Below, piece after piece: positions 9,884-13,238 of a DNA stretch of 64,000 nt. How positions within the stretch are numbered: the first letter of the stretch is position 1; the number at the start of each line of letters is the position of its first letter. The stretch is from Escherichia coli (GTDB lineage: Bacteria > Pseudomonadota > Gammaproteobacteria > Enterobacterales > Enterobacteriaceae), in the NCBI RefSeq assembly GCF_024502345.1, contig NZ_JALDNN010000001.1; one strand, 5' to 3'. Below the pieces are notes generated by a model. That model was not told the DNA's origin. It did no database searches and saw only the letters and a list, made by a program, of their open reading frames with translations. The translations under genes and the position numbers were made by a program.

Positions 9884-10339
9884 ATGCAAGAAGGGCAAAA
9901 CCGTAAAACATCGTCCCTGAGTATTCTCGCCATCGCTGGGGTGGAACCATATCAGGAGAAGCCGGGCGAAGAGTATATGAATGAAGCCCAGCTGGCGCAC
10001 TTCCGTCGTATTCTGGAAGCATGGCGTAATCAACTCAGGGATGAAGTCGATCGCACCGTTACACATATGCAGGATGAAGCAGCCAACTTCCCGGACCCGG
10101 TAGACCGTGCAGCCCAGGAAGAAGAGTTCAGCCTCGAACTGCGTAACCGCGATCGCGAGCGTAAGCTGATCAAAAAGATCGAGAAGACGCTGAAAAAAGT
10201 GGAAGACGAAGATTTCGGCTACTGCGAATCCTGCGGTGTTGAAATTGGTATTCGCCGTCTGGAAGCGCGCCCGACAGCCGATCTGTGCATCGACTGCAAA
10301 ACGCTGGCTGAAATTCGCGAAAAACAGATGGCTGGCTAA
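9884..10339 (+). CDS. dksA: RNA polymerase-binding transcription factor DksA
   Basis: C4 zinc finger ([26 protein letters not shown]), coiled-coil region; start at MQEGQNRKT inside the listed ORF. Confidence 0.95.
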
Positions 10340-10405: not shown

Positions 10406-11302
10406 ATGACAGACACACAGTATATTGGCCGCTTCGCCCCCTCTCCTTCCGGCGAGCTTCATTTTGGCTCTCTGATCGCCGCGCTCGGCAGCTATTTGCA
10501 GGCTCGCGCCCGGCAAGGTCGCTGGCTGGTACGCATAGAAGATATCGACCCGCCTCGTGAAGTTCCCGGTGCCGCAGAAACTATCCTGCGCCAGCTGGAA
10601 CATTACGGTCTGCACTGGGACGGCGATGTTCTCTGGCAATCGCAACGTCACGACGCCTATCGTGAAGCACTCGCCTGGTTACATGAACAAGGACTAAGTT
10701 ATTACTGCACCTGTACGCGTGCGCGTATTCAAAGCATTGGCGGTATTTACGACGGTCATTGCCGGGTGTTGCATCATGGACCAGACAATGCCGCAGTGCG
10801 TATCCGCCAGCAGCATCCGGTCACGCAATTTACTGACCAGCTGCGCGGCATTATTCACGCCGACGAAAAACTGGTACGGGAAGATTTTATCATTCATCGC
10901 CGTGATGGGTTGTTCGCCTACAACCTGGCTGTTGTGGTTGATGATCATTTCCAGGGCGTTACAGAAATAGTGCGTGGGGCTGATCTGATTGAACCAACAG
11001 TAAGGCAAATCTCGCTGTACCAGCTTTTTGGCTGGAAAGTGCCAGATTACATTCATCTGCCGCTGGCGCTTAATCCACAAGGCGCTAAACTTTCCAAGCA
11101 GAATCATGCGCCTGCGTTGCCGAAAGGCGATCCACGCCCGGTACTAATCGCGGCACTTCAATTTCTGGGGCAGCAGGCAGAAGCACACTGGCAGGATTTC
11201 AGCGTCGAGCAAATCCTTCAGTCAGCCGTCAAAAACTGGACGCTGACCGCCGTGCCCGAGTCGGCAATTGTAAATTCAACATTCTCAAATGCGTCATGCT
11301 GA
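10406..11302 (+). CDS. gluQ: Glutamyl-Q tRNA(Asp) synthetase (GluRS paralog)
   Basis: Class I aaRS HIGH-like motif ([10 protein letters not shown]) and glutamyl-tRNA synthetase catalytic-domain similarity; start at [10 protein letters not shown]. Confidence 0.85.
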
Positions 11303-11361
11303 GCTATGATTAGCCGCTATTTTTTTGTCCTGAATGATGTTTGACACTACCGAGGTGTACT

Positions 11362-12759
11362 ATTTTTACCCGAGTCGCTAATTTTTGCCGCAAGGTGCTA
11401 AGCCGCGAGGAAAGCGAGGCTGAACAGGCAGTCGCCCGTCCACAGGTGACGGTGATCCCGCGTGAGCAGCATGCTATTTCCCGCAAAGATATCAGTGAAA
11501 ATGCCCTGAAGGTAATGTACAGGCTCAACAAAGCGGGATACGAAGCCTGGCTGGTTGGCGGCGGCGTGCGCGACCTGTTACTTGGCAAAAAGCCGAAAGA
11601 TTTTGACGTAACCACTAACGCCACGCCTGAGCAGGTGCGCAAACTGTTCCGTAACTGCCGCCTGGTGGGTCGCCGTTTCCGTCTGGCTCATGTAATGTTT
11701 GGCCCGGAGATTATCGAAGTTGCGACCTTCCGTGGACACCACGAAGGTAACGTCAGCGACCGCACGACCTCCCAACGCGGGCAAAACGGCATGTTGCTGC
11801 GCGACAACATTTTCGGCTCCATCGAAGAAGACGCCCAGCGCCGCGATTTCACTATCAACAGCCTCTATTACAGCGTAGCGGATTTTACCGTCCGTGATTA
11901 CGTTGGCGGTATGAAGGATCTGAAGGACGGCGTTATCCGTCTGATTGGTAACCCGGAAACGCGCTACCGTGAAGATCCGGTACGTATGCTGCGCGCGGTA
12001 CGTTTTGCCGCCAAATTGGGTATGCGCATCAGCCCGGAAACCGCAGAACCGATCCCTCGCCTCGCTACCCTGTTGAACGATATCCCACCGGCACGCCTGT
12101 TTGAAGAATCGCTTAAACTGCTACAAGCGGGCTACGGTTACGATACCTATAAGCTGTTGTGTGAATATCATCTGTTCCAGCCGCTGTTCCCGACCATTAC
12201 CCGCTACTTCACGGAAAATGGCGACAGCCCGATGGAGCGGATCATTGAACAGGTGCTGAAGAATACCGATACGCGTATCCATAACGATATGCGCGTGAAC
12301 CCGGCGTTCCTGTTTGCCGCCATGTTCTGGTACCCACTGCTGGAGACGGCACAGAAGATTGCCCAGGAAAGCGGCCTGACCTATCACGACGCTTTCGCGC
12401 TGGCGATGAACGACGTGCTGGACGAAGCCTGCCGTTCACTGGCAATCCCGAAACGTCTGACGACGTTAACCCGCGATATCTGGCAGTTGCAGTTGCGTAT
12501 GTCCCGTCGTCAGGGTAAACGCGCATGGAAACTGCTGGAGCATCCTAAGTTCCGTGCGGCTTATGACCTGTTGGCCTTGCGAGCTGAAGTTGAACGTAAC
12601 GCTGAACTGCAGCGTCTGGTGAAATGGTGGGGTGAGTTCCAGGTTTCCGCGCCACCAGATCAAAAAGGGATGCTTAACGAGTTGGATGAAGAGCCGTCAC
12701 CGCGTCGCCGTACTCGTCGTCCACGCAAACGCGCACCGCGTCGTGAGGGTACCGCATGA
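11362..12759 (+). CDS. pcnB: Poly(A) polymerase I
   Basis: Nucleotidyltransferase motif ([10 protein letters not shown]...DFD), basic C-terminal tail; start assigned to the ATT codon at 11362 (recalled non-AUG start of K-12 pcnB); an in-frame TTG lies at 11341. Confidence 0.85.
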
Positions 12760-13238
12760 CAGTTGCGTATATTGCCATAGGCAGCAATCTGGCCTCTCCG
12801 CTGGAGCAGGTCAATGCTGCCCTGAAAGCATTAGGCGATATCCCTGAAAGCCACATTCTTACCGTTTCTTCGTTTTACCGCACCCCACCGCTGGGGCCGC
12901 AAGATCAACCCGATTACTTAAACGCAGCCGTGGCGCTGGAAACAACACTTGCGCCTGAAGAATTACTTAATCACACACAGCAAATAGAGTTGCAGCAAGG
13001 TCGCGTTCGTAAAGCAGAACGCTGGGGACCGCGCATACTCGATCTTGATATCATGTTGTTTGGTAATGAAACCATTAATACCGAACGACTCACCGTCCCG
13101 CATTACGATATGAAGAATCGCGGCTTTATGCTGTGGCCGCTGTTTGAGATTGCCCCGGAACTCGTGTTTCCTGATGGGGAGACATTACGTGAAATACTCA
13201 CTTCGCTAGCAGTACTACAACCTGCCATCTGGTATTAG
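12756..13238 (+). CDS. folK: 6-hydroxymethyl-7,8-dihydropterin pyrophosphokinase
   Basis: HPPK-like sequence; ATG overlaps the pcnB stop (ATGA), as in K-12. Confidence 0.9.

Follow-up and report, generated by a model that had tools for sequence, protein, structure and literature searches.

Gene content of the pcnB locus

The window, that is, the whole stretch of 64,000 nucleotides of Escherichia coli DNA analysed here (assembly GCF_024502345.1, contig NZ_JALDNN010000001.1), carries the gene order sfsA-dksA-gluQRS-pcnB-folK-yadN on the plus strand. The dksA-gluQRS-pcnB-folK neighbourhood is seen in the RefSeq annotation of an identical locus, and gluQRS and/or folK also lie beside pcnB in distant loci. 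The features that bear on the expression of pcnB are as follows, in window coordinates.

11282–11310, plus strand: sigma-70-like promoter, TTCTCA-17 nt-TATGAT, in the gluQRS end/intergenic region (consensus scan)
11335–11337, plus strand: in-frame TGA that closes the pcnB frame on its upstream side (direct reading)
11341–11343, plus strand: TTG, the start in the mechanical open reading frame list (472 aa); not the physiological start
11351–11397, plus strand: near-invariant nucleotide block, −11 to +36 from the A of the ATT, including the synonymous sites of codons 2–9 and 12
11352–11357, plus strand: Shine-Dalgarno (SD) sequence GAGGTG, spaced 4 nt from the ATT; its 16S rRNA duplex is the strongest among five candidate starts tested
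11362–11364, plus strand: ATT, the pcnB translation start codon (RefSeq CDS start, conservation, literature)
11362–12759, plus strand: pcnB CDS, poly(A) polymerase I, 465 aa plus stop
11365–11400, plus strand: conserved N-terminal peptide of 12 residues, amino acids invariant or near-invariant in 79 species
11446–11448, plus strand: GTG, codon 29, at the beginning of the conserved catalytic core; ATG (Met) in ∼90% of other species
11515–11517, plus strand: first in-frame ATG, codon 52 (direct reading)
12756–13238, plus strand: folK, whose ATG overlaps the pcnB stop (ATGA, 12756–12759)

The product of pcnB, poly(A) polymerase I (PAP I), scores 996.4 bits against the NCBIfam equivalog NF008634 (cutoff 702), with residues 1–464 aligned, and 521.9 bits against TIGR01942 (cutoff 305.65). 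The crystal structures 3AQM, 3AQL and 3AQK are near-identical to it over residues 28–442 (E = 1e-283 to 1e-284), the crystallised constructs (3AQK/3AQL/3AQM) starting at residue 28 or 29. Compared to the K-12/PDB sequence, the protein encoded here has at least one substitution (D for E in GYGYxTYKLL). At the 3′ end of the gene, the overlap between the folK ATG and the pcnB stop suggests translational coupling of folK to pcnB. For two other genes of the locus, the starts in the mechanical open reading frame list (dksA, GTG 9866; gluQRS, ATG 10376) lie upstream of the RefSeq starts (window positions 9884 and 10406, respectively).

The reading frame and start codon of pcnB

Direct reading of the pcnB frame gives the codons TGA(11335) TGT TTG(11341) ACA CTA CCG AGG TGT ACT ATT(11362), followed by TTT ACC CGA GTC GCT AAT TTT TGC CGC AAG GTG CTA. 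A preliminary description of this DNA had stated that the conserved N-terminus of PcnB is preceded in frame only by ATT 11362 and TTG 11341, with no ATG, and this proved exact. Initiation at an ATG further upstream, which the same description had named as the observation that would overturn its reading, is impossible, because the TGA at 11335 shuts the frame nine codons before the ATT. Counted from the ATT, the earliest in-frame ATG is codon 52, at 11515.

In the three genomes inspected (E2865, W3110 and 2017-02-2CC), the RefSeq/PGAP annotation begins the pcnB CDS at the ATT. The RefSeq CDS start at position 2613 of locus L001 corresponds to window position 11362, and the annotated product is 465 aa. 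Predicted duplexes with the 16S rRNA 3′ end favor the same position, with −9.8 kcal/mol for ATT 11362 compared to −2.3 kcal/mol for TTG 11341. Values for the downstream candidates are −0.1 (GTG 11395), −4.5 (GTG 11446) and −4.0 kcal/mol (ATG 11515). The gene has sequence properties of the AUU-start class: the frame is closed upstream, there is no conserved canonical alternative, and an SD lies at functional spacing from the AUU.

Conservation of the start region within and beyond E. coli

Within E. coli, window positions 11250–11650 show 100% identity to strain E2865, among others, and find a match in 5424 of 5426 complete genomes. The 75-nt start region (11326–11400) is identical in 5415 of these 5424 genomes, K-12 derivatives included. 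When the ATT of the query was replaced with ATG, the altered sequence perfectly matched none of the 5424 E. coli genomes. One variant start region was inspected, and its sole change is a C to T substitution at −2.

We extended the comparison to 80 species of Enterobacteriaceae, represented by one genome each and with 87–99% protein identity to the window; alignment-based counts are for 79 species. In all 80 species, ATT directly precedes the conserved 12-residue peptide, and GAGGTG at −10 to −5 from the ATT is invariant (79/79). The position of the E. coli TTG 11341 is TTG in 26 of the 80 species and otherwise AAA, CTG, CAC, ACT or other triplets, while in 43 of the 80 the stretch from the upstream in-frame stop to the ATT lacks ATG, GTG and TTG altogether. 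There are 14 conserved Ile columns in pcnB, and only that of the ATT start is single-codon across the 79 species, the other 13 being mixtures of ATT and ATC. Judged by this codon usage, the triplet resists synonymous drift, which is expected of a start codon but not of an ordinary codon for Ile. The start of folK, in the same loci, varies (ATG in 37, GTG in 27).

Two loci of this sample, from Salmonella enterica subsp. diarizonae and arizonae (L022 and L023; ∼1477–1500), have, where E. coli has the TTG, an in-frame ATG seven codons before the ATT. There is no obvious SD ahead of this ATG, and gene callers probably start pcnB there in these two subspecies.

More distant relatives were taken as cluster representatives from a whole-library search. 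Loci L083 (67% protein identity) and L084 (62%, from a 1.08-Mb genome) both retain GAGGTG-N4-ATT, and the NCBI record for L084 calls the pcnB start at the ATT. In L086 (55%), GAGG is followed by ATT ATT and then ITKVINLYHRLF. In L087 (54%), the homologous peptide RRVIELCKKVIG is encoded upstream of the called ATG, without a canonical start; for this reason, ATC is the likely start codon there, as read from the sequence. By comparison, L088 (60%) has a plain ATG start (MLTGFKTLVRK), and many further homologues have a similar basic, hydrophobic N-terminal peptide that begins at ATG, GTG or TTG. The recurrence of this peptide in distant homologues indicates that it is a real feature of the protein and that the identity of the start codon is lineage-specific.

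Two of these distant loci have unusual gene structures. In L083 (801–2298; CP043324.1, a 5.0-Mb genome), pcnB is called in two pieces, of 316 and 150 aa, a sign that the assembly contains a frameshift or a sequencing error. The homologue in L085 (801–1060; 62% identity) has a Lys/Arg/Ser-rich N-terminal extension of ∼75 aa in place of the conserved peptide, and its start is called at GTG.

Alternative start sites

If pcnB began at TTG 11341, its product would be 472 aa long and would include MTLPRCT as additional residues. Apart from this TTG, no canonical start codon precedes the conserved N-terminus. Two Salmonella subspecies carry ATG in place of the TTG, and UUG is named as the pcnB initiation codon in the introduction of PMC3561954, a paper that is inconsistent on the point and gives AUU in its discussion. 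The site is not preceded by an SD, though, its predicted duplex being worth −2.3 kcal/mol compared to −9.8 kcal/mol for the ATT, and in many of the species that do not share the TTG it is occupied by a non-start codon (AAA, CAC, ACT). More than half of the species (43/80) have no canonical start ahead of the ATT whatsoever. The interval between TTG and ATT shows non-synonymous codon changes (ACT, GCT, AAT, AAC, CCT, ATT), there are indels in the leader, and RefSeq and the literature both put the start at the ATT. We therefore consider initiation at the TTG very improbable. The doubt that the preliminary description had cast on this listed start is borne out by the lack of an SD, by retention of the codon in only 26 of the 80 species, and by the use of the ATT in RefSeq.

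It could also be argued that translation starts mainly at a downstream codon, GTG 11395, GTG 11446 or ATG 11515, and that 11351–11397 is a non-coding leader element. Codons 2–9 do not vary at the nucleotide level, a pattern also expected of a non-coding element, and being nearly invariant, these codons alone give no coding signal in the form of synonymous changes. Codon 29 is ATG in ∼90% of species, and the crystal constructs begin at residue 28/29. PMC2939334 adds the internal promoter pS1, two western bands and speculation on a short isoform. One argument against a downstream start is the variable linker that follows the conserved peptide (codons 14–28): it is open in 79 species, has no gaps in the first 45 alignment columns, and varies with third-position periodicity. 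Since the linker is open and varies at third positions, it must be translated from upstream. Outside the Enterobacteriaceae sample, the N-terminal peptide of L083 shows synonymous and conservative substitutions (GCA, AAC, AAA, CTC), homologues with canonical starts have an equivalent basic, hydrophobic N-terminal peptide, and the NCBIfam equivalog aligns from residue 1. The SDs of the downstream candidates are weak or lacking. A downstream main start is thus hardly credible. It is possible that a minor short isoform is made from pS1 alongside the AUU product, and ATG 11515 is a possible start for it.

Nucleotide-level conservation of the initiation region

Conservation around the ATT extends to positions that are free to vary without changing the protein. 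The near-invariant block (11351–11397) includes a fixed rare CGA codon and the synonymous sites of TTT ACC CGA GTC GCT AAT TTT TGC (79 species). Among 284 degenerate columns of pcnB in which the amino acid is conserved, only 13 are single-codon across the 79 species, and 7 of these 13 fall within codons 1–12 (Fisher P = 4.5e-8). Codons 1–9 form the window of lowest synonymous entropy in the gene, at 0.05 bits versus a median of 0.97. At the 5′ ends of gluQRS and folK, analyzed in the same loci, we saw no comparable synonymous suppression.

We looked for RNA structures and known motifs that might account for the invariance. RNAfold and RNAalifold predict a hairpin in which 11351–11357 pairs with 11367–11372, with the AUU in the loop (−4.5 kcal/mol). 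This SD hairpin is no better than those of shuffled sequences (z = 0.12), shows wobble-compatible changes only and no true covariation, and is weakened in L083 and absent from L086; we rejected it as the cause. A second hairpin, over codons 6–19, has several broken pairs and is likewise unsupported. An Rfam scan of 11150–11600 gave chance-level matches only (E above 7). A CsrA-type site over the SD was dropped on inspection by eye, there being no GGA core.

Most economically, the block is read as the result of strong stabilising selection across the entire initiation region, given that a weak start codon lets its context set the level of expression; PMC5499595, which says that context matters for rare start codons, offers a comparison. 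The block may instead mark an undescribed cis-regulatory layer, namely a protein or small-RNA binding site, or a context for tunable, IF3- or growth-rate-dependent initiation at AUU. We hold this to be unlikely. Such a reading would go beyond the simple explanation of a weak start codon. The extent of nucleotide-level conservation at the pcnB initiation region is the one mildly new element here.

A second, small cluster of single-codon columns was seen in the 79 species at codons 41–43 (CGC AAA GAT; 11482–11490). A connection with pS1, or with the region that precedes ATG 11515, is conceivable.

Published evidence and the proposed initiation mechanism

The AUU start of pcnB is already published and annotated in databases, and our observation is correct rather than new. 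Initiation at AUU is credited to Binns & Masters 2002 (Mol Microbiol 44:1287) in the papers that cite it, and the window has the same gene, codon and context, with no substantive difference from that E. coli case. PMC2939334, PMC3561954, bioRxiv 10.1101/063800, PMC5499595, PMC9764084 and PMC4447247 all describe the AUU start of pcnB and the limited translation of PAP I. In E. coli, confirmed AUU starts number only two, those of infC and pcnB (bioRxiv 10.1101/063800, PMC5499595, PMC4447247, PMC9410913). Initiation at AUU in reporter constructs amounts to ∼1–2% of that at AUG. The cell contains 30–50 molecules of PAP I, overexpression of which is toxic (PMC3561954). The preliminary description had pointed to an inefficient non-AUG start that limits poly(A) polymerase levels, in agreement with the AUU of the literature, the RefSeq annotation and our comparative data. 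A literature search for start-site ribosome profiling (retapamulin) mentioning pcnB returned only a Staphylococcus aureus paper.

PMC2939334 names pB as the main sigma-70 promoter ahead of the pcnB ATT. The promoter at 11282–11310 is probably pB. In 69 of 79 species TATGAT occurs in the 100 nt before the ATT, in 65 of them with TTCTCA at 17-nt spacing, and the leader that follows this conserved promoter is variable, measuring 36–72 nt across species. The same paper places pS1, an internal sigma-S promoter, 3′ of the ATT, reports two bands in anti-PAP I western blots, and speculates that a shorter isoform of PAP I arises from an ATG. From the history given there, ATG 11515 is probably the start first proposed by Liu & Parkinson (1989).

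The ribosome binding site of pcnB has been described as ‘poor’ (PMC3561954, PMC9764084). The GAGGUG seen here, by contrast, is a perfect 6-nt match to the anti-SD sequence, with strong predicted pairing (−9.8 kcal/mol).

We are highly confident that translation of pcnB starts at AUU 11362, and the combination of a good SD with a poor start codon likely caps PAP I. The anatomy of the region, its annotation, and the invariance of the ATT, SD and context are direct observations, while the standing of AUU as the established start and its limiting effect come from the literature, through papers that cite Binns & Masters 2002. In the mechanism we propose, the promoter at 11282–11310 would yield an mRNA with a short leader, on which GAGGUG (11352–11357), fully complementary and 4 nt upstream of the start codon, would allow normal 30S recruitment and place the ribosome on the AUU. 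Pairing between AUU and initiator tRNA would be imperfect, and IF3 would discriminate against such complexes. Few binding events would be productive, which would hold the PAP I content of a cell to a few tens of molecules. This limit is important, since PAP I in excess adds poly(A) to tRNAs and is lethal.

We infer a role for IF3 as the discriminating factor by analogy with infC. Like pcnB, infC, which encodes IF3, has a conserved non-canonical AUU start that limits expression. It differs in that the discriminating factor is its own product, IF3, and a feedback loop results (PMC9410913). For pcnB, dependence on IF3 would, on this analogy, tie PAP I to IF3 and the translational status of the cell, rather than constitute autoregulation. 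A further parallel is ebpA of Enterococcus faecalis (PMC4447247), in which a rare ATT start likewise attenuates a costly protein, although gene and organism are unrelated and the product is not an RNA-modifying enzyme but the tip protein of a pilus.

For genome scans, the lesson is that a mechanical start (TTG 11341) or one set by a gene caller (such as GTG 11395 in protein P0002) is wrong for pcnB. The synonymous invariance of the initiation region would matter only if an additional regulator of RNA polyadenylation capacity lies behind it. The AUU start of pcnB itself is a textbook-level curiosity, one that explains why cells contain only tens of molecules of PAP I, an enzyme that is toxic in excess.
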